The notes beneath the pieces are model-generated. The model was not told the DNA's origin and made no database searches. It saw only the letters and a program-made list of their open reading frames with translations. DNA of 64,000 nucleotides from a virus. Below, piece by piece: positions 26,358 to 62,971 of the stretch. The DNA is taken from the IMG/VR virus record IMGVR_UViG_3300024333_000005, positions 21,242 to 85,241 of that record; one strand, given 5' to 3'. A program made the translations under genes and the position numbers. Numbering within the stretch: the first letter of the stretch is position 1; each line of letters begins with the position of its first letter.

Positions 26358-27281
26358 ATGGCAGAGCGGTTGCGGTTCGGGCGGTTGGAGCTGGCGGTCC
26401 GGGAGGACCTGACCCCGGCGGACGAGTTCCGGGTGCCGGCCTTCGACGAGCAGTACTACCTCGACCCCGTCCGCCTGGAGGACCTGGCGGCTGCGGTGCA
26501 GGTCCGCATCCCCGCCTTCCTCTGCGGGCCGCCCGGCTCCGGCAAGACCAGCGTGGTCCTCCAGCTCGCGGCCCTGCTCAACCAGCCCGCGGTCCGGGTC
26601 AACCTGGGCGGACAGCCCCACGTGGCGGACCTGCTCGGCGAGAAGGCCCTGACCGTCGAGCCGGCCTCCGGGCAGGCGGTCACCGAGTGGCGGGACGGCC
26701 CGGTCACCGAGGCCGTCCGCCGGGGCTGGTGGTTGATCCTGGACGAGTACACCGCCATGCCGCCGAGCGTGACCCTGCGGCTCCAGGGGCTCCTGGAGGT
26801 CGGGGGCTCGCTGGTGCTGGCGGAGAACGGGGGCGAGGTAGTCGAGCCCCACCCGAGCTTCCGCCTGTTCGCCACCGACAACACCACTGGCCGGGGCGAC
26901 GACACCGGCCTCTATCAGGGGACCCAGGCGCAGAACGACGCCAACCTGGACCGCTTCGTGGTCTTCGCCTGCGACTACCCGCCCCCGGCCGAAGAGGCGG
27001 CGATCCTGGTCCGCAAGACGGGCATCCCCGCCAAGGTGGCGAGGATGATGGTGGAGGTTGCGACCCTGGTGCGGTCCGGCATGCAGAAGTCGGAGACCTT
27101 CTGCACCCTCGGGACCCGGCGGCTCCTGGCCTGGGCCAGCTTCGCCGCGGCCTACGCGAACGGCCACGCCTACACCGCCCCCGCGGCCCGGGCCTACCGG
27201 GTCGCGGTCCGGTCGAAGCTCGGGGCGGAGGACGCGGCCTACGTCGACGGGGTGGCGAAGCGGGTGGGGTTCGACCTGTGA
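26358..27281 (+). CDS. MoxR/CbbQ/CobS-family AAA+ ATPase
   Basis: 'GPPGSGKT', 'WRDGP', 'LILDE', 'HPSFRLFATDNT.G.GD', 'LDRF'. Confidence 0.92.
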   Translation: MAERLRFGRLELAVREDLTPADEFRVPAFDEQYYLDPVRLEDLAAAVQVRIPAFLCGPPGSGKTSVVLQLAALLNQPAVRVNLGGQPHVADLLGEKALTVEPASGQAVTEWRDGPVTEAVRRGWWLILDEYTAMPPSVTLRLQGLLEVGGSLVLAENGGEVVEPHPSFRLFATDNTTGRGDDTGLYQGTQAQNDANLDRFVVFACDYPPPAEEAAILVRKTGIPAKVARMMVEVATLVRSGMQKSETFCTLGTRRLLAWASFAAAYANGHAYTAPAARAYRVAVRSKLGAEDAAYVDGVAKRVGFDL

Positions 27282-29566
27282 CCCGCCCCGCTCCCACCTC
27301 TGCCGGCCTGGGCCTGCACGGCGGCTACTTCGCCCGTATCGCCCGCACCTTCGCTCGGGACTGGGGGGTGCAGGTTCGGGTCGGGTCCTGCGCCCGGGCG
27401 CTCCTGACGCGAGGCGTCGTCGAGCTGCCGGGCGCGGTCGAGTTCCTGGAGGGCGAGGGCCGGGCGGCCCTGGAGGGGCTGCTCGACCACGAGGCGGCCG
27501 GCCACCTGCTCCAGGAGAAGGAGTGGCCCGAGGGCCAGCGCCCGTCGGACGTGCTGATGCGAGTGCTGGAGCGGCCCGACGCGGCCCGCGTGAAGCGGCT
27601 GCTCAACGTCGCCGAGGACGTGCGGGTGGAGCGGGCGGCGGCGGCCCGCTGGCCGGGGATCGCCGCAAACCTGCTCGCCGCTCATCGCTTCATGGCCGGC
27701 CGCCTGCGGCGCACTCACGAGACGGACCCCCTGCCAGCGGTCGAGCAGGCGTTGCTCCTGGTGCTCGCCCGAGCCCGGGGCTACGCTGACCACTACGCGT
27801 GGCTCCCACCCGAGGCGCACGCGCTGGTGGACCGCCTGGGGCCCGAGGTCGAGCGGGTCCGCTCCGCCGTCACGCCGGAGGACGCCTACGAGGCGGCCCT
27901 GGCGCTCCAGGCGGGCCTGGAGCGGCTGGCGGCTCCCCCGCCGCCCCCGCCGCCCTCCCCCGCCGCCGCCCCTGCCGGGAGCGGCGAGGACGAGGACGAG
28001 ACCCCCCAGACCCCCGAGGACCCCGAGAGCGCCGGCGCCAGCGAGGGCGGGGACGACGAGGACGAGGGGGATGGCGGGGACGACGAGGACGAGGACGAGG
28101 ACGGCGGCGGCGAGGGCGAGCTGGGCCCCGAGGGGGAGGACGGGCTGGGAGGGGAAGGCGAGGCTCTGCCTCCGCCCGAGCTGGACGAGGCGGACGACTC
28201 GGAGCCCGGCGAGGACGACGGCGAGGGCGGCGAGGGCGGCGAGGGGGCCGAAGGCGACGGCTGTGGAAGCGAGGACGAGGGCGAGGACGAGGGCGAGGAT
28301 GGGGAGGACGACGGCGGCCGCGGGAGCGACGAGGACGGCGACGAGAGGGCGGAGGGCGACGGCTGCGGAAGCGAGGGCGATGACGAGGGGCCTGGCGACG
28401 CCGAGGGTGCCGAGGGGCAGGAGTCTGGCGAGGACGAGGGCGGGGACGAGCAGGACGGGGCGGCCGGCGAGGGCACCGACGACAGGAGCGGCGAGGGCGC
28501 CGGGGAGGGCGGGGCGGCCGGCGCCGGGTCGGGGCCTCCCGACGAGGACCCGGACCCGGCCGACAAGGGCGAAGTCGCCGGCGAGGCGCTGGCGGTCCTG
28601 ACGGGCTTGGAGGACCTGGACCCGACCGCCTCCTTCCGCGAGGGCGCTCTGAATGAGCTGGTGCGGGAAGCGGAAGCGGCGGCCCGGGAGGCTCCCTGGC
28701 GGGACCTTCCCCATCCGGCTGCCGCGGCCAGGGACCGCTTCGCCAACACCTGCCCGTCTGCCCGGTCCCAAGCGACCTACTCGGCGGCCTGGGCGGCCGC
28801 GCAGAAGGTGATCGGCGGCCTCTCGGCCCGGCTGGCCGCGCTGCTGCGGACGACCCGGGAGCAGCGGCTTGCCGACCGGCGCACCGGCCGGGTGGACCCG
28901 ACCGCCCTGCACCGGGTCCGGGCTGGCCGGACCGACGTTTTCGAGCAGGACCTCCGGCTGCCGGGGCTGGACACGGCGGTCGCCATCCTGCTCGACGAGT
29001 CGGGCTCCATGAGCGGCGGGCGGGCGGGCGCGGCCCGGGAGCTGGTCCTGGCCCTGGGCGAAGCGCTGCACCGGGCTGCCGTTCCCTTCGAGGTGCTCGG
29101 CTGGTGGGAGGAACCTGCCCGGGGGGCGGGGAGCGAGGGTGGCCTCTACACCCGCATCGAGGCTCGGGTGGTCCACGAGTTCAAGACCTATGGCGAGTCC
29201 TGGCCGAGGGTGCGGGGGCGGCTTGGTCACTCGGGCGGCTACGGCAACAACGACGACGCCGGGGCGACCCTCTACGTTGCCCGCCGGCTGGCGGCCCGGC
29301 CGGAGCGGCGCAAGGTGCTCTTCGTCGTCTCCGACGGCGCCCCCTGCCACGCCGGCCGCAGCACGCCGGAGGCCCGGGAGGACCTCAAGGGCGCCCTGGG
29401 CCTGGTCGAGCGGGCCGGAATCGAGACCGCGGGCATCGGCATCGCCTCCCCCCACGGGCAGGACTTGTACGGGCGGTGGGAGACGGTTGCCTCCCTGGCC
29501 GACCTGCCCGGGGCCGCGGTCCGGCTGCTCCAGAAGCTCCTGGTCCCCTGTAGGAGGGCCGCCTGA
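27278..29566 (+). CDS. CobT-like vWA-domain protein with long acidic linker
   Basis: N-term 'LDHEAAGH' and 'N..EDVRVE'; long D/E/G-rich linker; 'GRVD', MIDAS 'DESGSM', 'VVSDG.P', 'GIGI'. Confidence 0.88.
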   Translation: MTRPAPTSAGLGLHGGYFARIARTFARDWGVQVRVGSCARALLTRGVVELPGAVEFLEGEGRAALEGLLDHEAAGHLLQEKEWPEGQRPSDVLMRVLERPDAARVKRLLNVAEDVRVERAAAARWPGIAANLLAAHRFMAGRLRRTHETDPLPAVEQALLLVLARARGYADHYAWLPPEAHALVDRLGPEVERVRSAVTPEDAYEAALALQAGLERLAAPPPPPPPSPAAAPAGSGEDEDETPQTPEDPESAGASEGGDDEDEGDGGDDEDEDEDGGGEGELGPEGEDGLGGEGEALPPPELDEADDSEPGEDDGEGGEGGEGAEGDGCGSEDEGEDEGEDGEDDGGRGSDEDGDERAEGDGCGSEGDDEGPGDAEGAEGQESGEDEGGDEQDGAAGEGTDDRSGEGAGEGGAAGAGSGPPDEDPDPADKGEVAGEALAVLTGLEDLDPTASFREGALNELVREAEAAAREAPWRDLPHPAAAARDRFANTCPSARSQATYSAAWAAAQKVIGGLSARLAALLRTTREQRLADRRTGRVDPTALHRVRAGRTDVFEQDLRLPGLDTAVAILLDESGSMSGGRAGAARELVLALGEALHRAAVPFEVLGWWEEPARGAGSEGGLYTRIEARVVHEFKTYGESWPRVRGRLGHSGGYGNNDDAGATLYVARRLAARPERRKVLFVVSDGAPCHAGRSTPEAREDLKGALGLVERAGIETAGIGIASPHGQDLYGRWETVASLADLPGAAVRLLQKLLVPCRRAA

Positions 29567-48756: not shown

Positions 48757-49547
48757 TGCCTCGTCAGCTCAAGCCATACTCGGTCGGGGAGGTCGTGGAC
48801 TCGGAGAGCGGGGTCAGGGTCCCGCTGTTCCTCGACCGGAACGCCTCGCCCAAGGTGTTCTTCGGGGAGGTCTTCGGGGAGCGGCTGGCGGCGGCCACCG
48901 AGGTCGAGGTCAAGCGCCTGGTCCTGGCCCGGCTCCGGGAGGGCGTGACCTACGAGTGGGAGCGGATTGTCGTGGTCCACACCCAGGGGAGCTTCGGGGA
49001 CCGCGGGTTGATCGTGGAGTTCGGCGAGCGCGAGATTGCCCGCCGTCCGGCCGGGGGCGACCCTTGCCGCCCCTGGGTGGAGCGGAGGGTCCGTCCGGTG
49101 CGCGACCGCGTCGAGGCGACCATCAGCTCCTACTCGGGGCCGACCGAGAGCCGGCCCGAGGACGGGGTCTTCGTCTTGCCCTGGAGCGAGGCGACGATGC
49201 TCGGGCTGCGGGACATCAAGGCCCGGCTGGACCTGCTCCGGGCGCGGCTGCGGGAGGTCCTGGGAGCGCCCGAGGCGCCCGTGCTGCTCGCCCGGCTGGT
49301 GAAGGCGCTACCTGCGCCGGCCGAGGCGCCGGCCGAGGCCCCTGCCCCGCCCGGCGAGCCGGCCGAGCCGGAGGCAAGCGGGACGGTGGAGCTGGAGGCC
49401 CACTTCCAGCTTGGCCCGGACGCGGCGCCGTGGTGCCAGGCGTGCGGGTCCTACCACGTCGCCCCGGCGGACGCCGCCCACCACCAGGCGCTCCGGTGTC
49501 GGGCCCCGTGGCCGCCGGCCGGGGCTCCGGCGGAGGGGTCGAGGTGA
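48756..49547 (+). CDS. Hypothetical protein
   Basis: TGATG coupling; protein-like composition. Confidence 0.7.
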   Translation: MPRQLKPYSVGEVVDSESGVRVPLFLDRNASPKVFFGEVFGERLAAATEVEVKRLVLARLREGVTYEWERIVVVHTQGSFGDRGLIVEFGEREIARRPAGGDPCRPWVERRVRPVRDRVEATISSYSGPTESRPEDGVFVLPWSEATMLGLRDIKARLDLLRARLREVLGAPEAPVLLARLVKALPAPAEAPAEAPAPPGEPAEPEASGTVELEAHFQLGPDAAPWCQACGSYHVAPADAAHHQALRCRAPWPPAGAPAEGSR

Positions 49548-49984
49548 CCGACGCTGACCGCGCTCTCGCTCGCCGCGCTGCCGCCTGCGAGCACTGGAAG
49601 TGGCGGGCCGGCATGCGGGTCGTGATCTCCTATGCCGAAGCTACAGCCAGCGCCCGCATCGTGAGCGCCCGCCTGGACGGGATCGCGTGCGCGGACGAGC
49701 GCGGACTCCGCTACGGGTGGCACCACCTGGGGGCTGGCCCTGCACAAGAGCGGTGCCTGCCCGACCTCGCGGACGCGGCCACGATGGGTTGCCTCCTTGC
49801 CCTCGTGCGGGAGGCGTGGCCGGGGTGGCGCGTCACCGTCGAGTGGGGCGGGGAGCCCTCGGACCCGGAGTACGGGTGGGTCGCCGTCTGCTACGACGAC
49901 CGCACCGGCGAGGTGCGGACGCTCGGCCCCGACGGAGGCACCGAAACCGACGCCCTCGTTGCGGCGCTGGAAGCGGCGCCGTGA
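49544..49984 (+). CDS. Hypothetical phage protein
   Basis: GTGA-coupled; 'LARRA.AC.HW.W..GM...LPDL.D.AT.GCLLALVREAW'. Confidence 0.7.
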   Translation: MTDADRALARRAAACEHWKWRAGMRVVISYAEATASARIVSARLDGIACADERGLRYGWHHLGAGPAQERCLPDLADAATMGCLLALVREAWPGWRVTVEWGGEPSDPEYGWVAVCYDDRTGEVRTLGPDGGTETDALVAALEAAP

Positions 49985-50072
49985 CCTGGGCCGCACCGCT
50001 CCTGTCCGCCGCCTGCGGGGGCGGGCGACCGCTCCCCGGGCCGGACGCAGGGCGGGCGGCCGCGGAGGCCCC

Positions 50073-50954
50073 GTGACCGACGCAGAGCGAGTGGCCGAGC
50101 TGCTGGCGCGGTGCGCCCGCACCGAGCATCTGCTGCGCCGCGAGCGCGAGCGGATCGCCGTGCTCTACGACGTGCTGGAGGAACGCTACCTCCAGGACTT
50201 CCGGTGGGAAGACCAGAGCCATCTCCCGGACGGCACCGGGGACGAGGCTGCCCGGGCGCAAGCTTGCGTGGCCAAGGCGGCGTGCCAACGGGCTGCGGAT
50301 GCCGGCCGGGTGACCTGGCGCCACGTCCTCGCCGAGGAAGTCGCCGAAGCCTTGGCCGAAGCCGAGCCGGCGAAGCTGCGCCGTGAGCTGGTCCAGGTCG
50401 CGGCCGTTGCGGCAGCATGGGTCGAGGCCCTTGACCGCAGATCCAGGGGAGTCGCCGCGGTGGTCGCCCGCGGGGACGCGGGAGGCGCGGCCGACGCCGC
50501 GGACGAAGGAGGCGCCCCCATGACCGCTTCTGCCTCTCCGGCCGAGGGCCGCAAGCGCCCGCCGGCGACGCTGACCCACGACGAGGGAGCCGTAGCCCGC
50601 TGCTCGTTCTGCGGACGATACACGCTCGATCCCGCGGCCCTCGGTCCCGCGGCGAGGCAACCGGACTGCGAATGCGGCCGGCGGGACGGCTGGTGCGGGT
50701 CCTTCGTGCCTCCCGGCGATGACGCGCAGTGGTCGCGCAAGGCGCCGCCACGCGTCGTCGCGGTACCAGACACCCTGGAGGCGCTGGCGGCCCGGATTGC
50801 CCGGGCCGAGCCGGGGGCGGCCGACGACCTCGCCGCCGCGCTGACCGGCCTGCGGACAGACGTGGGTGTGCTGGACCTGCGGGTGCGGGCGCGGCTGGAG
50901 CGGATCGAGGCGTACGTCGCCGCGCTGGCCAAGGCGAGGGACGTGAAGCCGTGA
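50073..50954 (+). CDS. MazG-like NTP pyrophosphohydrolase fused to a Cys-rich domain
   Basis: 'QD.RW..Q.H.PDGTG...TW..VL.EEVAEA..E......RELVQVAAVA.AW.E.LD'; internal RBS and ATG at 50520. Confidence 0.7.
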   Translation: MTDAERVAELLARCARTEHLLRRERERIAVLYDVLEERYLQDFRWEDQSHLPDGTGDEAARAQACVAKAACQRAADAGRVTWRHVLAEEVAEALAEAEPAKLRRELVQVAAVAAAWVEALDRRSRGVAAVVARGDAGGAADAADEGGAPMTASASPAEGRKRPPATLTHDEGAVARCSFCGRYTLDPAALGPAARQPDCECGRRDGWCGSFVPPGDDAQWSRKAPPRVVAVPDTLEALAARIARAEPGAADDLAAALTGLRTDVGVLDLRVRARLERIEAYVAALAKARDVKP

Positions 50955-51385
50955 GTGGGGATGCGCCCCGCTGTCCCCGTTGCGACTGCGAGGACTGCCC
51001 GGCGGCCGCAGTCACCTGGCGGGAGGTCGCGGCGCTCGCCGACGGGTGGGCGCCGGCGGGAGATGCCGAGGACGACCCCCGCGTCCTCGACGACTCGGAG
51101 CGCCACGGGTGCCACGGCGAGCCCGTGGACTGGCGGGCGCGAGCGCTGGAGGCGGAAAGCGAGCGCGGCGCCCTCCTGGCCCGCTGCCTCGCCGCGGTCG
51201 AGGCGATGCCGGACTTCGCGGGGCCATGTTCGTTGTGCCACGGCACCCGCTCGGACGAGTACGGGGCGGAGTGCTCGGAGTGCGATGGCCGCGGCCATCG
51301 GGGGCTGGAGGGCCTGCTGCGCTCCGACGTGCTCGCCGCCCTGCTGCGGGCGGGGGGAGTAGACGGACGACGGAGGCACCCGTGA
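50951..51385 (+). CDS. Cys-rich hypothetical protein (CxxCxGxG-like)
   Basis: GTGA-coupled; CSLCHG...CSECDGRG. Confidence 0.6.
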   Translation: MSGDAPRCPRCDCEDCPAAAVTWREVAALADGWAPAGDAEDDPRVLDDSERHGCHGEPVDWRARALEAESERGALLARCLAAVEAMPDFAGPCSLCHGTRSDEYGAECSECDGRGHRGLEGLLRSDVLAALLRAGGVDGRRRHP

Positions 51386-51828
51386 TCGACGAGCTGCGGG
51401 CGGGCCTGGACCGGCTCAACCAAGCGATGTATGGCGAGGCGAAGGGCCAGAGCTGGCCGGACGCGGAAGCGGCCAAGCTCCTTCGCTACGCGGCCGACCG
51501 AATCGACATGCTGACTGCGGACGGGGATCGGGCCTGGCAGGAAGCCAAGCGGCTGCGCGACGCCCTGTGCCGGCTCACGCAAGAGGTGTCTTCCCTGAAC
51601 GTCGGGGGGCGGGGGCGGGAGTCCTGCTCGACCCTGCTCCGGGAGGCGGGACAGGCCGCGGCGGTGGCGGCGAAGGCCCTGGAGCCGGGCGATGCGCTTC
51701 TGCCAGCATCGCCGGAACTGCCCCGAACCTGCGCCGCGCACTTCCGGGCGACGGTCCAGTGGTGGGACGAACGGCAGACCGAGTGCCCTTTCTGTGCCGC
51801 GCTGAAGGCGCAGTGCCCGGGGGGCTAG
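51382..51828 (+). CDS. Hypothetical protein
   Basis: GGAGG RBS; GTGA-coupled. Confidence 0.6.
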   Translation: MIDELRAGLDRLNQAMYGEAKGQSWPDAEAAKLLRYAADRIDMLTADGDRAWQEAKRLRDALCRLTQEVSSLNVGGRGRESCSTLLREAGQAAAVAAKALEPGDALLPASPELPRTCAAHFRATVQWWDERQTECPFCAALKAQCPGG

Positions 51829-52184
51829 GGCAGGTTCAACCCGATCACGTCCCGCTCCCGGCGCTCGTCGTGGCGGGAGCGCAGGAGGGCCCGCGCCGCC
51901 TGGAGGTGGGAGAGGGCCTGGGCGTTCGCCTCGCAGGGGAAGGGGCCGGCCTGGAAGGCTTCGAGCCGGTCGGCGAGGATGGCGAACAGGTGCTCGTCGA
52001 GCGCTCCCTGGCGGGAGCCCGGCTCCCGGCGCGGGCCATGCTGAAACTCGACCAGAGCCAGGACCAGGTTGTCGGGGTCCTGGACCTCGTAGTAGTGGCT
52101 GGCCCCGCCGGCGTTCGGGTCCCGGTCGTCGGCGAGGACCCGGCCCCACTCGTACTCCGCGACCTGGTGAAGCTCGCTAGGCAT
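51825..52184 (-). CDS. tad1: Tad1-family anti-defence sponge (Thoeris gcADPR / cyclic nucleotide binding)
   Basis: 119 aa; 'GGASHYY...FQHGPR.E..S..G..D..L..I..DRL..FQAGPF...NA.AL.H......R...R.ER.V.G.N' follows the Tad1 pattern over its full length; GGGAGG RBS. Confidence 0.85.
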   Translation of the reverse strand: MPSELHQVAEYEWGRVLADDRDPNAGGASHYYEVQDPDNLVLALVEFQHGPRREPGSRQGALDEHLFAILADRLEAFQAGPFPCEANAQALSHLQAARALLRSRHDERRERDVIGLNLP

Positions 52185-52325
52185 GGCGCCTCCCTGGGGC
52201 GGCAGGGTAGCAGACCCGGGAGGCGGGGCCAAGGGGACGCTCTGGGCTGGCGTAGGGGGGGGGAGTAAGGGCCGGCGCCTGGCGCCAGTTCCAGAAGCCG
52301 GTCGAACTCGCCGCGGAGGAGGACG

Positions 52326-52532
52326 ATGCCCAACCTGAACCTCGCCTGCCTCGTGGTCTGCAACGCGTGCAAGGCCCCCCTCCCGGCTCGGGCCGAGGTC
52401 CACCAGGGAGGGGGCTACACGTTCCTGGTCGAGCCCTGCAAGGGCTGCCTGACTGTGGCCGAGGACCTCGGCTACGAGCGCGGCTACGAGGGCCGGGACC
52501 GGCCCCGGGAGCCGGGTCGTGAGCGAAGCTGA
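52326..52532 (+). CDS. Small Cys4 zinc-binding protein
   Basis: GGAGGAGG RBS; CNAC...CKGC. Confidence 0.65.
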   Translation: MPNLNLACLVVCNACKAPLPARAEVHQGGGYTFLVEPCKGCLTVAEDLGYERGYEGRDRPREPGRERS

Positions 52533-52788
52533 CGAGGTGGCCGCGGCCCTGGCCCTGCTCTGGGGCCGGGCCTGGCCGGGGCCGGGCGTGGCGCCCGAAG
52601 CCCTAGCCCGGCACCTGGGGTGGTGGCGGCGGCCGGGCCCGCCGGCCGACCCGCGGGACCTGGTGCTCGACGCCGGCCGGGCCTACGTAGCGCTGGTGGG
52701 GCTGGAGCGGCGGGATCTCGCTCGGTGCTGTCGGGTGCCCGGGGCGACCTTCTACTGGCGGCCGACGGGGAGAAGGAGCGAGGGATGA
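52519..52788 (+). CDS. Hypothetical protein
   Basis: Coupled ORF ending in ATGA overlap with the next gene. Confidence 0.5.
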   Translation: MSEADEVAAALALLWGRAWPGPGVAPEALARHLGWWRRPGPPADPRDLVLDAGRAYVALVGLERRDLARCCRVPGATFYWRPTGRRSEG

Positions 52789-54020
52789 AGCCAAGGATGC
52801 GAGTGGCCGAGCGGACAATCCGCTCGGCATGGCTCGACGGGGTGGAGGCGGTGGCCTGCCAGGTGACCGCGACCCGGACGGCCGGCCCGCTCCGGTTCGT
52901 CGACCGGGACGACCGGGAACAGGCGGTCCGGGTGGGGGGCGCCCTGGCCGCGGCCGGCCTTCCGGTCGACGCCGAGGTCCGGTTCCATCCGGCGCCGCCC
53001 TTCCCGGCTTCCGAGCTGGATCTGCCCGCGGCCCTGGCGGTCGCCGGGCTGGCCGGCGGCGAGGCGGACCACTTCGACCTGGCCGAGCTGTTGGCGGTCG
53101 GGGAGCTGACCCTCGACGGGCGCCTGCGGTTGGTGCGGGGGGTGGCGCGGATGGTCGCCTCCCCCACCCTGCGCCGGGTGATCGTGCCGGCAGCGAACCG
53201 GACCGAGGCGGTCCTGGCCTCCCGGCCTGGCAACGAGGTGGTGGCCGCGGGCGACCTGGCCGAGGCCCGGCGAGGCGAAGGGTTGCCGGGAGTGCCGGTG
53301 GACCTTCTGCCGGAGCCGAGGCCCCTGCCGCCCCTGCCGCTCTCCCGGGAAGCTCTGGGGCTTCTGTCCTCCGCCCTGGCCTCTCGGCGCCCTCTGCTCC
53401 TGGAGGGGCCGCCGGGGTGCGGGAAGACCGCCCTCGCCCGCCGGCTGCCGGCAGCCCTGCCGCCGCCCTCCCTGTGCGAACGCGAGGAGGTGGTCGCGGC
53501 CCGCTCGGCCGCGGGCCTGCTCGACGTGAACGATCTCGCCTACCTGGGGTACCGCCCCTTCCGGGCTCCGCACCACACCTGCTCGACGGCCGCCTTCGGC
53601 GGCGCCGGGCCGGCCGGGGCGCGGGCCCGGCCAGGAGAGGCCGCTCTGGCCCACCGCGGCGTCCTCCTGCTCGACGACCTCGGCGAGTGGTCCCGGGCGA
53701 CCCTGGAGGTGGTCGCGGCCGCCTTCCGACTCGGAAGCGTGCAGCACCCGCGGGGCGCCCGGATGCCGGCCGTCTTCTGGCCGGTGCTCGCCTCCCCCCT
53801 CTGCCCCTGCGGCCTGCCTCCCCGGTGCGTCTGCCGGCCGGAGACGCTGCGGGCCTGGGAGGCGCGCCGGGCCGGAGTTCTGGCGCTGTTCCCTGGCTGC
53901 GTTCGGCTGCGGGTCGACGAGCTGGCCGGCGGGGCCGAGGCGGCCGGCACGACCGCCGACCTGGCAGACCTGGTGAAGCAAGCCCTCGGAGGAAGCGATG
54001 TCCGCCCCCATGCCGGGTGA
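52785..54020 (+). CDS. comM: ComM/YifB-family Mg-chelatase-like AAA protein, truncated and degenerate
   Basis: 'LDLP.ALA', 'GEL.LDG.LR.V.G', 'IVP.AN..EA', 'GPPGCGKT.LARRL', 'PFRAPHHT', 'PGE..LAH.GVL.LDD', 'CPCG'. Confidence 0.85.
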   Translation: MKPRMRVAERTIRSAWLDGVEAVACQVTATRTAGPLRFVDRDDREQAVRVGGALAAAGLPVDAEVRFHPAPPFPASELDLPAALAVAGLAGGEADHFDLAELLAVGELTLDGRLRLVRGVARMVASPTLRRVIVPAANRTEAVLASRPGNEVVAAGDLAEARRGEGLPGVPVDLLPEPRPLPPLPLSREALGLLSSALASRRPLLLEGPPGCGKTALARRLPAALPPPSLCEREEVVAARSAAGLLDVNDLAYLGYRPFRAPHHTCSTAAFGGAGPAGARARPGEAALAHRGVLLLDDLGEWSRATLEVVAAAFRLGSVQHPRGARMPAVFWPVLASPLCPCGLPPRCVCRPETLRAWEARRAGVLALFPGCVRLRVDELAGGAEAAGTTADLADLVKQALGGSDVRPHAG

Positions 54021-54960
54021 CCTGTCGGCCCAGCTCTCCCGCTACCTGCGGGAGCGGCACGACGCGCTCTCCCCGGAGGCAAGGCTGGTCTGGTCCACCA
54101 GTAGCGACCTGGTCGCCATCCTGCGACTGACCTGGGAGAAGCTGTGGTGGGAGGAGCGGGCCCGGGAGTTCCTGGCCCGGCTCGACGGGGTGGAGGCAGC
54201 CGCGGCCGAGGCGGCCCGGGAGCGCACCGCCCTGGATCGCGGGGCGGCCCGGGTCCTGGAGCGGGTCGAGTGGGGTGGCCCCTGGGGGCGGGGCTACTGC
54301 CCCGACTGCCTGGAGAGCCGGGGGGTGGGGCACACCCCGCGCTGCGGGATTGCCTGGGCGCTCGGGCGTCCCGGGGCGGAGCCCTGGCCCGGCGGCGAGT
54401 CCTCGCCGGCCGAACCCCGGAGCCTGCCCCCGGTGTCCGCGAACGAGATCCGGGTCCTGGCGGCCCAGGCTTTCGAGGCGCTGCGCCGGGTCGCCGGCGA
54501 GTTGTGGGAGAGCCCGCGGCTCCGGGCCTCCGGCCACGACTGCCGGGAGGACTCCCGGGGCGCTCCCTGCCCCTGCTCCCGCGATGGCCGGAGTGCCCCC
54601 GAAGAAGAGTGCGATTGCGGGGCCGCCGAAGACCTCCTGATGGCCAGGAGAGCCTACGCCATCGTCGAGTCGGCCCTGGTCGATGTCCCGGTGCTGCGCT
54701 TGCCCGACCCGCGGCTGACCGAGCCGGCGGTGGTGCGGGGCAAGCGCGGGGTGCCGGTTCCCGGGCTGCCGCCCTGCCCGCCCGGGGGGTGGGTCGAAAT
54801 CGTCCTCCCTACCCCCGGCCCGGCCGCCTGGAACCAGCCGCGGCAATGGGCGGTTCGCGATTCCGAGGGGCGGCTGCTCGGAGAAGCGACTTGCCTGCTC
54901 GACCCGGCGCCCGGGGTGCTGCTCCCGACTGCGGAATGGGACGAGCGGTGCAAGTCGTAG
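53998..54960 (+). CDS. Hypothetical Cys-rich protein
   Basis: GGAGG RBS; CPDC..H..C and further Cys clusters. Confidence 0.6.
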   Translation: MSAPMPGDLSAQLSRYLRERHDALSPEARLVWSTSSDLVAILRLTWEKLWWEERAREFLARLDGVEAAAAEAARERTALDRGAARVLERVEWGGPWGRGYCPDCLESRGVGHTPRCGIAWALGRPGAEPWPGGESSPAEPRSLPPVSANEIRVLAAQAFEALRRVAGELWESPRLRASGHDCREDSRGAPCPCSRDGRSAPEEECDCGAAEDLLMARRAYAIVESALVDVPVLRLPDPRLTEPAVVRGKRGVPVPGLPPCPPGGWVEIVLPTPGPAAWNQPRQWAVRDSEGRLLGEATCLLDPAPGVLLPTAEWDERCKS

Positions 54961-55142
54961 ACGGCCGCCCTCGCCTCTTCCCGGCCGACCCCTGGCCGGC
55001 GGACCCGCAGCGGGAGGGAGAGCACCCCTGCTCCCGGTGCCCGGAGCCCTCACCCACTCCCGACGACTGCCGGCGCTGCGAGGCCAAGTGGGAGCGGGCC
55101 TACGACGACCTGGCCGAGGCGGCTGCCCCGGAGGCGCGGTGA
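54948..55142 (+). CDS. Small Cys4 protein
   Basis: CSRC...CRRC; start uncertain. Confidence 0.45.
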   Translation: MQVVDGRPRLFPADPWPADPQREGEHPCSRCPEPSPTPDDCRRCEAKWERAYDDLAEAAAPEAR

Positions 55143-56444: not shown

Positions 56445-56650
56445 TGCGTGGAGCGGTGACCCTTGCGGGGTTGCCCCTTCCGGTGGCTCTCCCCCTCCCG
56501 CCGTGGCTGCGGAGGGAGGGGGGCTGCCGTCGCGAGCGAGACCTTGCCCGGGCGAAGCCTATGCGGGAATGGCGCTCGGGTGGGGTCTGGGAGATCCTAC
56601 TAGGTCCCCGACGCGGCGAAGGCCAGGCAGAGCGCCTGGCCTTCGCCTGC
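56445..56650 (+). ncRNA. Putative structured small RNA
   Basis: Stems at 56455-56475 and 56482-56528 with several G-U pairs valid only on +; ends in a 14-bp perfect hairpin. Confidence 0.55.
56615..56647. terminator. Strong hairpin between convergent transcripts
   Basis: GGCGAAGGCCAGGC-AGAGC-GCCTGGCCTTCGCC; no U-tract. Confidence 0.55.
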
Positions 56651-56669: not shown

Positions 56670-57512
56670 CTACGCCGCCGCCGCCGCCTCCGCCGCCGCC
56701 TCCAAGCTCCCCTGCCCGGCGAGCAGGTACCACCCGGCCGGCACCGACCCGGTCGCCCCGACCTCGACCACCGTCCGCTTCCCGCCCGGGGTGCGGATCG
56801 TGCCCTCGCTGATCACCGGCTGGACCGCGTCGCTGGCGGTGATCTCCCGGGCCGCGGTGATCGTCCGCTTCTCGCTCACCTTCCGCCGGAGGGCCTTCGG
56901 GCCGGTCCCCTTGCCGAGGCGCAGGGTGATGGTGTGCCAGTCGGGCCACGGCTGGGCGGTGCGGGCGTGCGGGCTCTCGCACCAGACCTGCCCGACCTGG
57001 GCGGACGCCTCGCCCCCGGCCCGCTCCCGGGCCAGCTTGCAGAGGGCCCGGCGGCAGTCGCTCCCCTTGGGCTGCTCGACGCCCTCCGCCCGGGCCGCCA
57101 GCCGCGACGCCTCGGTCTTGAGCCGGTTGATCGACTCCAGCTTCGCCTTGAGGGCCGCCGCCGGGTCCGCCGGCTTGCGGACCAGGGTGGCCTTCGGGGC
57201 CGGCGCCGACTCGGGCTCGGTCGCCCCGGCCGCCAGGGCCGCCCGGGCCTCCGCCAGCGGCTCGCTCGGCTTGGCCTCCGGCTCGGTGGCCGGGGCCGGG
57301 GGCTCGGCCGCGGGCGCCGGGGCGGCGGGCGCCGCGAGCGCCTTGCGGGCCGCCTTCACCGCCTTGGCCTTCTCGGCCGGGGCCGGCGCCGCCGGCTCGG
57401 CCGCGGGCGCCGCCTCCGGCGCCGCCTCGGGCTCCTTGGCCGCGAACGTCTTGCGGGCCTTCTCGGCCCCCTTCCCGCCCTGCTCCGGCTTCCGGTTGAT
57501 CTTCAGTGCCAT
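56670..57512 (-). CDS. Lys/Ala/Pro-rich protein with globular C-terminal domain (possible early/host-takeover protein)
   Basis: AAGGAG RBS; in the minus-strand operon under promoter copy B. Confidence 0.75.
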   Translation of the reverse strand: MALKINRKPEQGGKGAEKARKTFAAKEPEAAPEAAPAAEPAAPAPAEKAKAVKAARKALAAPAAPAPAAEPPAPATEPEAKPSEPLAEARAALAAGATEPESAPAPKATLVRKPADPAAALKAKLESINRLKTEASRLAARAEGVEQPKGSDCRRALCKLARERAGGEASAQVGQVWCESPHARTAQPWPDWHTITLRLGKGTGPKALRRKVSEKRTITAAREITASDAVQPVISEGTIRTPGGKRTVVEVGATGSVPAGWYLLAGQGSLEAAAEAAAAA

Positions 57513-57534
57513 CGTCGTTCTCCTTCCTCGGGCT

Positions 57535-58092
57535 CTAGGCCCGGCTGCTCCAGCGCTCGATCATCTCGGGGGTCCGCATATCCAGGGTGCAGACCTCCCC
57601 GCTCTCGGCCGCCTCCCGCATGCCCCGGGCGGTGTCCTCGTCCAGGCCGATCAGGCCCCGGCTGTGCGCCCCCTCGAAGGTCCAGGGGACCGGCAGCTCG
57701 ACGTAGGGCGACTCGCCCGGCTTCCGGCGGGTCGCCAGGTAGGCCCCGCCGAGCCGGCGCTTGCCGCACCCCCGGGGCAGCTCCAGGGCGGCGTCGACGA
57801 TCACCTGGAGCTTCAGGCCCTCGATCACCGGGGCCTCCAGGGTGGCGGCGCCGCTCTCGCCGGCGATGAACTCGACGTACAGGGGGTCGAAGTACCCGGC
57901 GATGATGCCCGGGTGGTAGGCCCCGCCGGCCGCCGCCGCGCCGAAGACGCACCAGACCCGGCTCTTGCCGGGCTCCAGGCCCTTCGGCAGGGGCAGCCGG
58001 ACCCGCCGGCTCACGCCCTGCTCCCGGGCCTCCGCGGCGAAGCTCTCGGGGGTGTAGTGCGAGCCCCCGACGTGGATCAGGTAGTCGCTCAT
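57535..58092 (-). CDS. Hypothetical protein
   Basis: AGGAGG RBS; 'YTPESF..EA...GVSRR', 'RGCG.R..GG.Y'. Confidence 0.75.
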   Translation of the reverse strand: MSDYLIHVGGSHYTPESFAAEAREQGVSRRVRLPLPKGLEPGKSRVWCVFGAAAAGGAYHPGIIAGYFDPLYVEFIAGESGAATLEAPVIEGLKLQVIVDAALELPRGCGKRRLGGAYLATRRKPGESPYVELPVPWTFEGAHSRGLIGLDEDTARGMREAAESGEVCTLDMRTPEMIERWSSRA

Positions 58093-58295
58093 CGGGTCCT
58101 CCTTGCCGCGCCCGCCTGCCCGTGGTCCACCTCGTCCGTCACGTCCTCCGGGCCGTCGGGCGTCTCCCGGTAGGCCCGGGCCTGGAGGCCCTGGGCCCGG
58201 GCTTGCCGCAAGCTGCGGGCCGCGGCCGTCTTGGTCCTGAGCCCCTCTTCCCAGGCCGTGTGCCCGGGTGCCCGAACGGTGTAGGTGATCCTCAT
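58089..58295 (-). CDS. Small hypothetical protein
   Basis: AAGGAGG RBS before ATG at 58295; frame is also open upstream to about 58403. Confidence 0.6.
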   Translation of the reverse strand: MRITYTVRAPGHTAWEEGLRTKTAAARSLRQARAQGLQARAYRETPDGPEDVTDEVDHGQAGAARRTR

Positions 58296-58402
58296 CTCGC
58301 CCTCCTTGCCGCGCCCACCTGCCGGCCTATCCGGCAGGGCCACCGACTCGACGGTGGTGCCCGGGCCCTCGCCCGGGCCGCACGACCGGCACCCGCTCGC
58401 CA

Positions 58403-58633
58403 CTACAGCCCCGCCTCCGCCGCGAGCAGGGCCAGGTCCTCCAGGGGCAGGACCCACCGGGCCTCGTCCCGGACGGCCGCCGGGGCGCAGGCGAACGACA
58501 GCTCGTCCAGCTCCACTTCGCACGCCTCGCAGACGACCCGGCAGCGCCGCGCCTCCCCCGGGCGGTAGGCGACCCGCCCCAGGATCTCGCCACATCGCTC
58601 ACACCGGACCAGCTCGCTCGTCTTGTTTGCCAT
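58403..58633 (-). CDS. Small Cys4 zinc-binding protein, first gene of the minus-strand operon
   Basis: TAAGGAGG RBS; CERC...CEAC. Confidence 0.7.
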   Translation of the reverse strand: MANKTSELVRCERCGEILGRVAYRPGEARRCRVVCEACEVELDELSFACAPAAVRDEARWVLPLEDLALLAAEAGL

Positions 58634-59791: not shown

Positions 59792-61216
59792 TTGTCCCCC
59801 CGCCCCCGCCCGTCCCCGGCCGCTCGGGCCGACCTGCTCCGCCGCCTGGAGGAGGCGAAGGCCCTGCGCCGAGAGTGGCTGCGCCGGCAGATTCTGGAGC
59901 GGGACCGAATCGACCTGCTCGCCAGCGAAGTCCTCGGCTACGAGGTCCGCCCGCACCACCTGGACCTGCTCCAGCATCAGCACCGCTTCCCGGACCGCAA
60001 CCTCGCCCTGGCCTGGCGGGGAGCCGGCAAGACCACCGTCCGCACCGTCTGCCGGGCGATCTTCCTCCTGCTCAAGAACCCGAACGCCCGCATCCTCCTG
60101 GCTTCCAAGTCGAGCCTGAACGCCGCGGCCATGCTGGCCGAGATCAAGGGCCGCCTGACCTCGCCGGCCTTCGAGGAGGTCTTCGGGGTCTGGCAGGGGC
60201 CGAAGTGGGACGACATCGCCATCCAGGTCCGGCCCCGGACCTCCGGCGCCAAGGAACCGAGCGTCGGAGTGGTGGGCGCCGAGTCCAGCATCGTCTCCCT
60301 GCACTGGGACGCCCTGCTGGTGGACGACCTGGTGGACGAGGAGAACGCCCGCACCCCGACCCTGCGCAACCGGCTCCAGACGCTCTTCTACAAGGCCCTG
60401 CTCCCGACCCTGGTACCGGGCGGTGAGCTGTCCCTCTGCGGGACCCGCTACCACCACCTCGACCTCTACGGCCACCTGGCCGAGAACGAGATGGCGGGCC
60501 CCCGGACCCTGGTGGTCCCCGGCCTGCGGGGGAGCGACGAGCAGGGCTGGGAGGCGGTCTGGCCGGAGCGCTTCTCGGTGGAGCACCTGCTCGCCCTGCG
60601 CAGAAGCATGGGGAGCATCCTCTGGGACTCGCAGTACCTCTGCTCGACTCGCAAGATGGCCGGCGGCGGCTTCGTCGACTTCGAGTGGTGCCAGCGGGTC
60701 GCGGCCACCGAGGTGCCCGCCGACGCGCCCCGCTTCCTGGGCGCCGACCTGGCGATCAGCATGGCGCCCGGGGCCGACCGCTTCGCCGTTGTCGTCGAAG
60801 CATGGGACTCGACCTCCGACCGGCGCTGGGTGGTCGACGGCTACGCCGGCCGCCGGCCGCCGCACGAGCAGCGGCGGATCATCGCCGACCACTACCGGCG
60901 GCACCGCTGCGTGCGGGGGTGCATCGAGAGCAACGCCTACCAGGCGGCGCTCATCTCCGACCTGCGCCGGGAACAGCCCGACCTGGTCCTGGTCCCCTCC
61001 CACACCGGCGCCGCCAAGGAGGCGCGGATGCTCGCCCTGGCCGCGGCCCACGAGGACCTGCGGGTCTTCTACGCCGAGGGGCTGGACTGGCTCGTCGAGG
61101 AAATGGTGCTCTTCCCGACCGGCGCTCACGACGACGGGTTCGACGCCCTGGACCTGGCCCACCGGGCGACCCGCTACCGGCAGCGGAAGGCCCGCCGGGA
61201 AGTCGGCTTGCTCTAG
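59792..61216 (+). CDS. terL: Terminase large subunit
   Basis: 'RGAGKTT', 'LLVDDLVDE', 'GTRYH..DLYG', 'WPERF', 'GADLA', 'HDD..DAL'. Confidence 0.95.
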   Translation: MSPRPRPSPAARADLLRRLEEAKALRREWLRRQILERDRIDLLASEVLGYEVRPHHLDLLQHQHRFPDRNLALAWRGAGKTTVRTVCRAIFLLLKNPNARILLASKSSLNAAAMLAEIKGRLTSPAFEEVFGVWQGPKWDDIAIQVRPRTSGAKEPSVGVVGAESSIVSLHWDALLVDDLVDEENARTPTLRNRLQTLFYKALLPTLVPGGELSLCGTRYHHLDLYGHLAENEMAGPRTLVVPGLRGSDEQGWEAVWPERFSVEHLLALRRSMGSILWDSQYLCSTRKMAGGGFVDFEWCQRVAATEVPADAPRFLGADLAISMAPGADRFAVVVEAWDSTSDRRWVVDGYAGRRPPHEQRRIIADHYRRHRCVRGCIESNAYQAALISDLRREQPDLVLVPSHTGAAKEARMLALAAAHEDLRVFYAEGLDWLVEEMVLFPTGAHDDGFDALDLAHRATRYRQRKARREVGLL

Positions 61217-61243
61217 GGCCAGGGCGGGCGGTAGAGTCGGCCC

Positions 61244-62971
61244 GTGGACCTGCGTGACGAGGTCGGTGGAACCGAGCGCCGCCGGCGGCAACAGGTGCGG
61301 GCCCTGGTCTTCGGCGAGGGGGGCCGGCTGCACAAGGCCGGCGACGGCGCGGCCCCGCCCGAGGCAAGCAAGAGCCTGTCCGAGCCCGACCTCTGGGGCT
61401 CGGGCATTGCCGACCAGATCGTCGATCCGCCCCTTGACCCCCTGGGCCTGGCCTCCCTGGTCGAGCAGAGCGCCGCCCTCGGCCCCCTGGTCGAGGCAAT
61501 GGAGGCGAACATCGAGGGCTTCGGGTGGCGCCTGGTGCCTCTGCTTGGCTACGATGCCACGCCGGCCCGCAAGGAGGAGGCGGCCGCCGAGCGCCGCCGC
61601 CTGGACAACTTCTTCCGCTACGCCACCACCGAGGAGAGCTTCACCAGCCTGCGCCGGCGCACGCGCCGCGACCTGGAGGTGACCGGGAACGCGTACTGGG
61701 AGGTGGTCCGCAGCCTGCGGGGCGAGATCGTCGGGCTCAAGCTGCTCCCCTCCTACCAGGTCCGGCTCTGCTACGAGGACCGGGACTACACCGCCGCCGA
61801 GGCCCCGGTCCTGGAAGTGCAGCCGGACGGCACCTACATCCTGGAGAAGCGGCGGGTCTACCGCCGCTTCCGGCGTTTCGTGCAGGGCGCCCTGGTGGCG
61901 ATGGGACAGCGGGCCACGGCGCAGTATCGCTACTTCAAGAGCTTCCGGGACCCCCGGGTGGTGGACAACCAGACCGGCGAAGTGGTGCCGGCCGAGAGGG
62001 TGGAGCGGTGGGACCGGGAGGGCGGGTCCATGCCCGAGGCCCGGCGGGCCAACGAGGTGATCCACTGGCGGATCGGCTCGCCCCGGACCCCCTATGGCCT
62101 GCCCCGGTGGCTCGGCAACCTGCTCGGCGCCCTGGGCGCCCGCTCGGCCGAGGAGATCAACTACGGCACCTTCCGCAACCAGTGCGTGCCGTCCATGCTT
62201 CTCCTGGTCTCCAACGGCCAGCTCACCGAGGCCACGATCAAGCGCATCGAGACCTTCGTCGAGAGCCACCTGAAGGGCGGCGACAACTACAGCCGCTTCC
62301 TGCTCCTGGAGGGCGAAGGGGCCTACGAGGGCGAGGACAGCGGGCACGTCAAGATCGACGCCAAGCCGCTCACCCAGGCGCAGCACACCGACGCCCTTTT
62401 CACGAACTACATTGGCATGTGCCACGGCAACCTGCGCCAGGCGTTTCGGCTGCCGGGCCTCTTCGTCGGCAAGGACGACGGCTACAACCGGGCGACTGCC
62501 GAGGTGGCCCGACGCCTGGCGGATGAGCAGGTTTTCGCCCCGGAGCGGGCCGAGGTGGACTGGGCCATCAACGCCCTGGTCCTCGCCGACCTGGGCGCCC
62601 GCTACTACCGCTTCGAGACCCGGACCCCGAACGTCACCGACAACGCCGAGCTGGTGTCCATGCTGACCGCCGCCGAGCGGACCGGGGCCATCACTCCGCG
62701 CCTGGCCCGGGCCATCGTCGAGGATGTCTTCCCGGGAGCCTCCGAGGCCCCGCCCTTGGACCCCCGGGTCAACCCCGACCTGCCCTTCTCGCTGACAATG
62801 GCGGAGGCGGTCAAGAACCAGGCGCAGACCACCGAGGTCAACCAACAGGTCGCGCCCGTCCAGGCGAGCGGAGTGGTGAAGGCGATCCGGGACGACCTCA
62901 TCGCCGACCTGCTCGCCACCGGCGACCGGGCCGCCACCGAGCTGCGCCGCCTGCTCCGCCGCGACGAGTAG
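61244..62971 (+). CDS. Portal protein (PBSX-like)
   Basis: 'DLEVTGNAYWEV', 'NEVIH', 'YGLPRW', 'F.N...P', 'YNRATA', 'F.PE'. Confidence 0.92.
   Translation: MDLRDEVGGTERRRRQQVRALVFGEGGRLHKAGDGAAPPEASKSLSEPDLWGSGIADQIVDPPLDPLGLASLVEQSAALGPLVEAMEANIEGFGWRLVPLLGYDATPARKEEAAAERRRLDNFFRYATTEESFTSLRRRTRRDLEVTGNAYWEVVRSLRGEIVGLKLLPSYQVRLCYEDRDYTAAEAPVLEVQPDGTYILEKRRVYRRFRRFVQGALVAMGQRATAQYRYFKSFRDPRVVDNQTGEVVPAERVERWDREGGSMPEARRANEVIHWRIGSPRTPYGLPRWLGNLLGALGARSAEEINYGTFRNQCVPSMLLLVSNGQLTEATIKRIETFVESHLKGGDNYSRFLLLEGEGAYEGEDSGHVKIDAKPLTQAQHTDALFTNYIGMCHGNLRQAFRLPGLFVGKDDGYNRATAEVARRLADEQVFAPERAEVDWAINALVLADLGARYYRFETRTPNVTDNAELVSMLTAAERTGAITPRLARAIVEDVFPGASEAPPLDPRVNPDLPFSLTMAEAVKNQAQTTEVNQQVAPVQASGVVKAIRDDLIADLLATGDRAATELRRLLRRDE

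Follow-up and report, generated by a model that had tools for sequence, protein, structure and literature searches.

The window analysed here is a stretch of 64,000 nucleotides, bases 21242-85241 of a linear virus record of 85,241 bp with a GC content of 0.742, whose completeness is estimated by CheckV at about 82%; the positions given below are those of the window. The gene map was drawn with a custom log-odds codon gene caller and is rough, not a curated annotation. Up to position 56600, this map contains 61 calls, a single one of which is on the minus strand: it encodes a 119-residue protein that resembles Tad1, and it is preceded by 53 and followed by 7 plus-strand genes (Table 1). The earlier note on this DNA had described a lone minus-strand gene in a plus-strand run, with its own ribosome-binding site and a stop codon that overlaps that of the convergent gene, and both the gene map and the sequence agree with this description. 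Over the whole record, the rough map counts 84 plus-strand against 4 minus-strand genes. The three other minus-strand genes form a block at 56670-58633 (280, 185 and 76 aa), just before the terminase and portal genes; the block has a good codon signal, and its products have no Pfam match.

Table 1. Features of the tad1-like locus, in window positions.
Feature	Positions	Strand	Basis
Convergent 148-aa ORF, backbone gene	51382..51828	+	gene map, codon-position GC
CTAG palindrome, overlapping convergent stops	51825..51828		sequence
tad1-like gene, 119 aa	51825..52184	-	homology, profile, AlphaFold2, Foldseek, codon-position GC
141-nt gap between divergent starts of tad1 (-) and next + ORF	52185..52325		gene map, sequence
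Shine-Dalgarno-like AGGGAGG	52189..52195	-	read from sequence; 4 nt before tad1 ATG
Divergent 68-aa ORF, two CxxC pairs, own GGAGGAGG RBS	52326..52532	+	gene map, sequence

The tad1-like reading frame is intact over 119 codons from an ATG at 52184-52182, and its GC by codon position in the minus frame (0.81/0.42/0.94) is that of real genes in this record of about 75% GC. Its codon log-odds signal is 0.52 per codon, compared to 0.08-0.41 for the neighbours, and its GC (0.725) and GC3 (0.94) are like theirs. In four of the four lake-water runs that were compared, the contig pieces lying on the gene have no differing letters. A longer reading of 192 aa, from a GTG at 52403, is unlikely: the coding signal switches frame just above about 52200, and the closest homologues share the N-terminus that starts at the ATG, which is why we prefer the shorter form. 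Two 11-nt arms of an inverted repeat (52187-52197 and 52215-52225, 91% complementary, with a 17-nt loop) lie just upstream of the start, and one of them spans the ribosome-binding site. This repeat could pair with the ribosome-binding site, or it may be the product of chance in 75% GC DNA; the repeats listed near the gene are only short direct and inverted ones, as expected at that GC content.

The stop codon of the tad1-like gene (51827-51825) overlaps that of the convergent plus-strand ORF (51826-51828), which leaves no space for a terminator in between. On the upstream side, the 141-nt gap is the only possible location for a promoter of the gene, and a putative promoter is presumably there. 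A consensus scan of 51300-52700 for sigma-70-like promoters and for terminators returned no promoter-like and no terminator-like site. A minus-strand element seen by eye (TTGGCC, a 17-nt spacer, and TACCCT, whose end is about 20 nt from the ATG) was rejected, its match to a promoter being too weak. The gap also contains a run of nine G at 52255-52263. In the lake-water run X10, the single high-depth contig carries one extra G behind 52254 (depth 714.8 of 714.8), which could be a length variant of the homopolymer or an artefact of assembly or sequencing.

The genes upstream of the tad1-like gene encode replication-type products (a UvsW-like helicase, a DnaB-like helicase, a DnaE-type polymerase and an SMC/SbcC-like ATPase) and the terminase and portal genes are found at 59792-62971, which places the tad1-like gene at the far end of a replication or early block. 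The replication block includes, at 26358-29566 on the plus strand, genes for a CobS-like AAA_5/CbbQ_C ATPase and then for a 762-aa CobT_C/VWA protein. Further downstream, and separated from the tad1-like gene by two small genes, 52803-54020 on the plus strand encodes a 405-aa ComM/Mg-chelatase-like protein (Pfam Mg_chelatase, 9.8e-32; ChlI, 2e-7). No tRNA was found in the record. The DnaE-type polymerase and the terminase are at most about 35% identical to the proteins of cultured phages and, judging from these sequences, the phage is one without a close cultured relative. Near-identical DNA is present in lake-water metagenome runs, one of which has contigs that cover the region of the gene with a word depth near 750; in run X10, 49000-55000 of the window is tiled by identical contigs whose word depth is about 715-1,250, from which it appears that the phage was very abundant in that sample.

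The product of the minus-strand gene is almost certainly a member of the Tad1 family, according to sequence, profile and predicted fold. A phmmer search against all PDB chains (E<=10) gives seven distinct sequences, five of which are versions of CbTad1 (best E 2.2e-15), the other matches being the Tad1 of 8kbb (2.6e-8) and gp184 of 8y6v (4.9e-5). A profile built from 103 homologues matches CbTad1 over its full length at 2.4e-38, 8kbb at 2.5e-25 and gp184 at 2.7e-18, and the protein itself matches PHROG 2428, whose function is not annotated, at E 3.3e-23. The AlphaFold2 model of the 119 residues (pLDDT 95.1, pTM 0.82) consists of strands at 6-11, 14-18, 31-35 and 41-47, followed by a hairpin of two helices, 63-79 and 85-110. 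Foldseek returns 20 PDB matches at E<=0.001, the best 12 of which are all Tad1 chains (TMq 0.72-0.85), and the next match after these 20 has an E of 0.057. The earlier note had named the protein Tad1-like, and this name is borne out by the comparison of profiles (CbTad1) and of structures (only Tad1 among the Foldseek matches listed). The Pfam model Acb2_Tad1_hairpin (PF24729.2) gives no match to the protein at E<=1 and, at E<=0.1, none anywhere in the record; within the homologue profile, 22 of the 103 members are matched by it, and a precomputed Pfam table assigns PF24729.3 to the protein. Acb2-named chains are found neither in the phmmer or profile matches against the PDB nor among the Foldseek matches listed.

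The motifs listed in the earlier note as typical of Tad1 are readable in the protein: GGASHYY at 26-32, FQHGPRRE at 47-54 and DRLEAFQAGPF at 72-82. The C-terminal arginines described as kept are R104 and R108, accompanied by V113 and G115, and the two departures from the signature are also as described, REN being replaced by EAN at 85-87 and LMW by RAL at 98-100. The numbering of chain 8kbg_D in the alignments agrees with that of Li et al. (10.1101/2023.11.15.567273).

According to that study, CbTad1 binds gcADPR and cyclic dinucleotides in a dimer-interface pocket that involves F82, N92, R109 and R113, and the binding of gcADPR and of 2'3'-cGAMP is severely reduced in the F82A/N92A and R109A/R113A double mutants (10.1101/2023.11.15.567273). 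In the alignment, these four residues correspond to F77, N87, R104 and R108 of the tad1-like protein, all retained, and R57 of the lid or loop of CbTad1 corresponds to R52, which is retained as well. On the basis of this alignment, there is a good likelihood that the protein binds a gcADPR-type signal.

Most Tad1 proteins, though not all, have a second site, on the three-fold axis of the hexamer, where cA3 and cAAG are bound via R90 and T97 of CbTad1; in the R90A or T97A variants, the binding of cA3 is markedly reduced and the inhibition of NucC is abolished, and R90 and T97, together with the M-W pair, also build the hexamer (10.1101/2023.11.15.567273). At the corresponding positions of the tad1-like protein, R90 is replaced by E85, which reverses the charge, T97 by S92, and M104/W105 by A99/L100. 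The changes from REN to EAN and from LMW to RAL therefore fall in the trinucleotide and hexamer patch. The earlier note had suggested that the altered residues possibly shift the range of ligands, and this suggestion can be sharpened: from the sequence, the trinucleotide patch appears to be hit, and the pocket for gcADPR and cyclic dinucleotides appears to be intact. We lean towards the view that the protein lacks cA3 binding, a somewhat better than even proposition.

Co-folding of two copies of the protein gave a mark of 0.79, compared to 0.00 for the best of three controls; this mark is reached by 20 of 30 solved one-chain pairs and by 1 of 23 solved single chains. The two-copy runs agree in at least 87% of the contacts, with a partner pLDDT of at least 80. 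Since Tad1 dimers have already been solved, this outcome may reflect likeness to them and is not a proof. Neither E85 nor S92 is confidently placed in the modelled dimer interface, which fits with a patch that faces outwards.

The alterations can be put in perspective by looking at the relatives of the protein. At E<=0.001, 2,351 cluster representatives match it, 347 of them at E<=1e-10, and its best homologue is 58% identical. The contigs of the nearest homologues have a GC content of 0.65-0.73. A tblastn search finds 68 cultured-phage records (32-44% identity among the matches listed), from phages of Bacillus, Pseudomonas, Vibrio, Aeromonas, Rhizobium/Agrobacterium, Clostridium and Burkholderia, and a search of genome contigs gives only three loci with a distant Tad1, at 43-49% identity (Nitratireductor, Sphingomonas and an Acidobacteriia MAG). 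Many homologues are proteins of 160-366 aa whose Tad1 domain is C-terminal (such as P0115, 360 aa with the match at 262-356, and P0174, 366 aa), and one of 174 aa (P0028) has two matching stretches; judging from their sequences, fused and tandem forms are common among these relatives. Hadary et al. collected 1,587 non-redundant Tad1 homologues from IMG/VR v3 (PMC12393519), a set which may already include the present protein.

In an alignment of the 174 nearest proteins (177 domain rows) to the tad1-like protein, the pocket columns are strongly populated by the expected residues (F in 169 of the 177 rows, N in 165, R in 174 and R in 170), and 157 of 172 homologue rows keep the complete set of four. 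Among the profile homologues, conservation is poor at the N-terminus and in the loops that form the cGAMP side of the pocket. As for the patch, the triad R/K-T-W in columns 85, 92 and 100 occurs together in 35 of the 174 nearest homologues and is absent from the other 139. Its members go together: the two-by-two table of R85 against T92 reads 32/2/14/126, and the rows that have the triad also have I or L in column 89, E in columns 95-96 and M in column 99. The 139 rows that lack it, that of the tad1-like protein included, have small or acidic residues in the patch columns, and the commonest residue in column 85 is E (43 rows). This shows that the alteration is common to a large subgroup, rather than special to this gene.

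Similar observations were made with metagenomes, where a clade-specific pattern led to 80 loci, several of them near-duplicates. Among the 78 complete rows, all 78 keep F/N/R/R, 24 have RTW, 5 have KTW, and 49 are patch-less. Both samples are skewed towards relatives of the query, as one consists of its nearest hits and the other was obtained with patterns from its clade, so that the share of patch-less rows should not be taken as an estimate for the whole family. For the same reason, it does not contradict the figure given by Li et al., for whom substitutions in the trinucleotide site affect only 6% of a PSI-BLAST homologue set (10.1101/2023.11.15.567273); Extended Data Fig. 9 of that paper may already show patch-less clades. 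In a FastTree phylogeny of 99 columns, in which 93 of the 171 inner branches are unresolved, the tad1-like protein belongs to a supported clade of six rows, none of which has the triad. The triad requires 14 changes on this tree, against a mean of 32.4 after shuffling, and the supported branches force only three, a sequence pattern which shows clustering and not a history.

We consider it likely, from sequence and models, that the gene encodes a homodimeric Tad1 sponge for gcADPR that has no trinucleotide and hexamer patch. The phage protein would pair into a homodimer with pockets at its interface, and these pockets would sequester the TIR-made signal of Thoeris (1''-3' or 1''-2' gcADPR), so that the host effector would not be switched on. 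Some CBASS cyclic dinucleotides are perhaps bound in the two interface pockets too. Without the patch of helix alpha-2, through which three dimers are held together and cyclic trinucleotides bound in the solved CbTad1 and CmTad1 hexamers, cA3 and cAAG would most likely not be sequestered, and the protein may stay a dimer. The lone minus-strand gene of the replication or early region would presumably have a promoter of its own, located in the 141-nt gap. The analysis shows to which family the protein belongs, which fold it has and which residues it keeps; the binding of the ligands, the loss of trinucleotide binding, the oligomeric state and the expression of the protein are what we infer here.

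Another hypothesis is that the protein is a canonical Tad1, a hexamer that binds gcADPR or cyclic dinucleotides and also cyclic trinucleotides, the site for the latter being rebuilt from other residues. All four homologues whose tests are described by Li et al. bound cA3/cAAG as well as cADPR isomers (10.1101/2023.11.15.567273), Ser92 is a conservative substitution for Thr97, and helix alpha-2 has Arg98 and Arg102: Ser92 could hydrogen-bond a phosphate as Thr does, and the two arginines could give positive charge elsewhere on the helix. We nevertheless find this hypothesis unlikely, since the phosphate-binding Arg90 has become a Glu, when R90A alone is enough for CbTad1 to lose cA3 binding (10.1101/2023.11.15.567273), and since the entire coupled patch (I/L89, T92, E95-E96, M99, W100) is missing.

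It may also be that the interface pocket is retuned, in which case the main target would be a CBASS cyclic dinucleotide or a different signal derived from ADPR (His-ADPR, N7-cADPR), and not the gcADPR of type I Thoeris. What speaks for this idea is that Tad1 proteins with four identical pocket residues differ strongly in their cyclic-dinucleotide spectra (10.1101/2023.11.15.567273), that the Tad2 and Acb2 families have members with shifted specificity (PMC12393519), and that the N-terminus and the loops on the cGAMP side vary. It is rather improbable all the same: gcADPR binding is common to all the Tad1 proteins for which these two sources describe tests (10.1101/2023.11.15.567273, PMC12393519), and the present protein keeps F/N/R/R and the loop arginine (R57 in CbTad1, R52 here). 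Last, that the gene is a decayed or neutral passenger without present function is very hard to believe, despite the scan of 51300-52700 that found no promoter-like site, considering the intact frame, the codon signal of 0.52 against 0.08-0.41, the strong ribosome-binding site, the family-invariant residues, all of which are kept, and the four of four lake-water runs with no differing letters on the gene.

The earlier note had also described the gene as moron-like, an idea that is supported only in part. In its favour are the opposite strand, the ribosome-binding site of its own, the 141-nt upstream gap and the fact that this is the lone gene shared with other Tad1 loci; against it, no promoter- or terminator-like site was found, the composition is like that of the neighbours and no contig skipping the gene was seen. 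Of the 69 genes of the window, only the tad1-like gene has homologues at E<=1e-4 in the 83 other loci that carry Tad1, which shows that it moves separately from the genes around it. Nothing points to a recent import from a different background, since its composition is neighbour-like and its nearest homologues are on high-GC contigs. No related locus was found in viral contigs, whether the query was the tad1-like protein or the ComM-like neighbour, nor in a metagenome scan with the tad1-like protein alone, and no related phage or contig without the gene was found in viral contigs, metagenome or lake-water contigs. Contig joints near the region were considered as a possible tad1-less variant and rejected: their sides are 20-34 letters long at 80% likeness, joints of a kind that often stems from other organisms or from repeats, and none of them excises 51825-52184.

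The small neighbours had been put forward as candidates for new anti-defence proteins, a proposal that finds no support here. The 148-aa, 68-aa and 89-aa ORFs have no match in Pfam or PHROG and do not co-occur with Tad1 in the 83 other loci; the only leads are sub-threshold first matches in the Atlas with no family attached, for the 148-aa ORF (0.89) and for the 68-aa ORF (0.90). The three ORFs belong to the plus-strand backbone. As for other sponges, Pfam models of Tad2-like proteins and of Acb1 have no match at E<=0.1 in the record, which is about 82% complete.

Tad1 is a well-studied counter-defence family and the gene itself is therefore no surprise. It extends the family to an uncultivated lake phage of 74% GC without close cultured relative, and its altered signature leads to a clear prediction, namely that the gcADPR pocket is retained and that the trinucleotide and hexamer patch is lost. 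As the residues of the R-T-W patch occur together, like a coupled module, and only a minority of the nearest homologues have them, the ligand range of Tad1 may be readable from sequence across metagenomes. The picture of a hexamer with eight sites and two types of signal comes from a few Firmicute proteins. If patch-less proteins were the majority of environmental Tad1s, as they are in our biased samples (139/174 and 49/78), this hexamer would be the exception. We put forward only tentatively, as something rather less probable than its contrary, that the patch-less Tad1 proteins are obligate dimers that gave up trinucleotide binding or never had it, and that act as single-signal sponges. If this is true, the specialisation might be selected, for instance in hosts that have no cA3-type CBASS or as a way to evade systems that sense over-broad sponges.

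[quoted passage not shown] The present protein belongs to the same family, and in Bacillus phages tblastn finds homologues that are 34-39% identical to it. The pocket mutants of SBSphiJ7 Tad1, F100A/N110A and R127A/R131A, concern the same conserved F/N/R/R (10.1101/2023.11.15.567273). With Acb2, the tad1-like protein shares the helical hairpin, which Pfam groups as Acb2_Tad1_hairpin, but its N-terminal beta-sheet is that of the Tad1 architecture; both Acb2 and the canonical Tad1 are hexameric sponges.

CmTad1 (PDB 8KBB-8KBD) has the same fold (TMq 0.77-0.85) and, as mentioned above, is retrieved by both the single sequence (2.6e-8) and the profile (2.5e-25). It binds cA3 and cAAG via R88 and T95, and its hexamer involves R88, K96, T95, Q98, E99, M102, W103 and K106 (10.1101/2023.11.15.567273). 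When the numbering is shifted by the +2 offset of that paper (R88/R90, T95/T97), most of these positions would differ in the tad1-like protein.

The closest point of comparison is CbTad1, from a Clostridium botulinum prophage (PDB 7UAV/7UAW/8SMD, 8KBE-8KBH). The two proteins are of similar length (about 124 aa for CbTad1, 119 here) and have the same fold (TMq 0.72-0.84), with 32-34% identity in structural alignments; the pocket F82/N92/R109/R113 and the loop residue R57 are identical, and a homodimer is predicted here. They differ in their origin, that of CbTad1 being a prophage of a Firmicute whereas the tad1-like gene is from a phage of 74% GC, and in the loop that connects the strands, which is shorter here, with gaps at query positions 37-41. 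They also differ in the residues that bind trinucleotides and form the hexamer in CbTad1: here, R90 is replaced by E, E91 by A, T97 by S and L103/M104/W105 by R/A/L.
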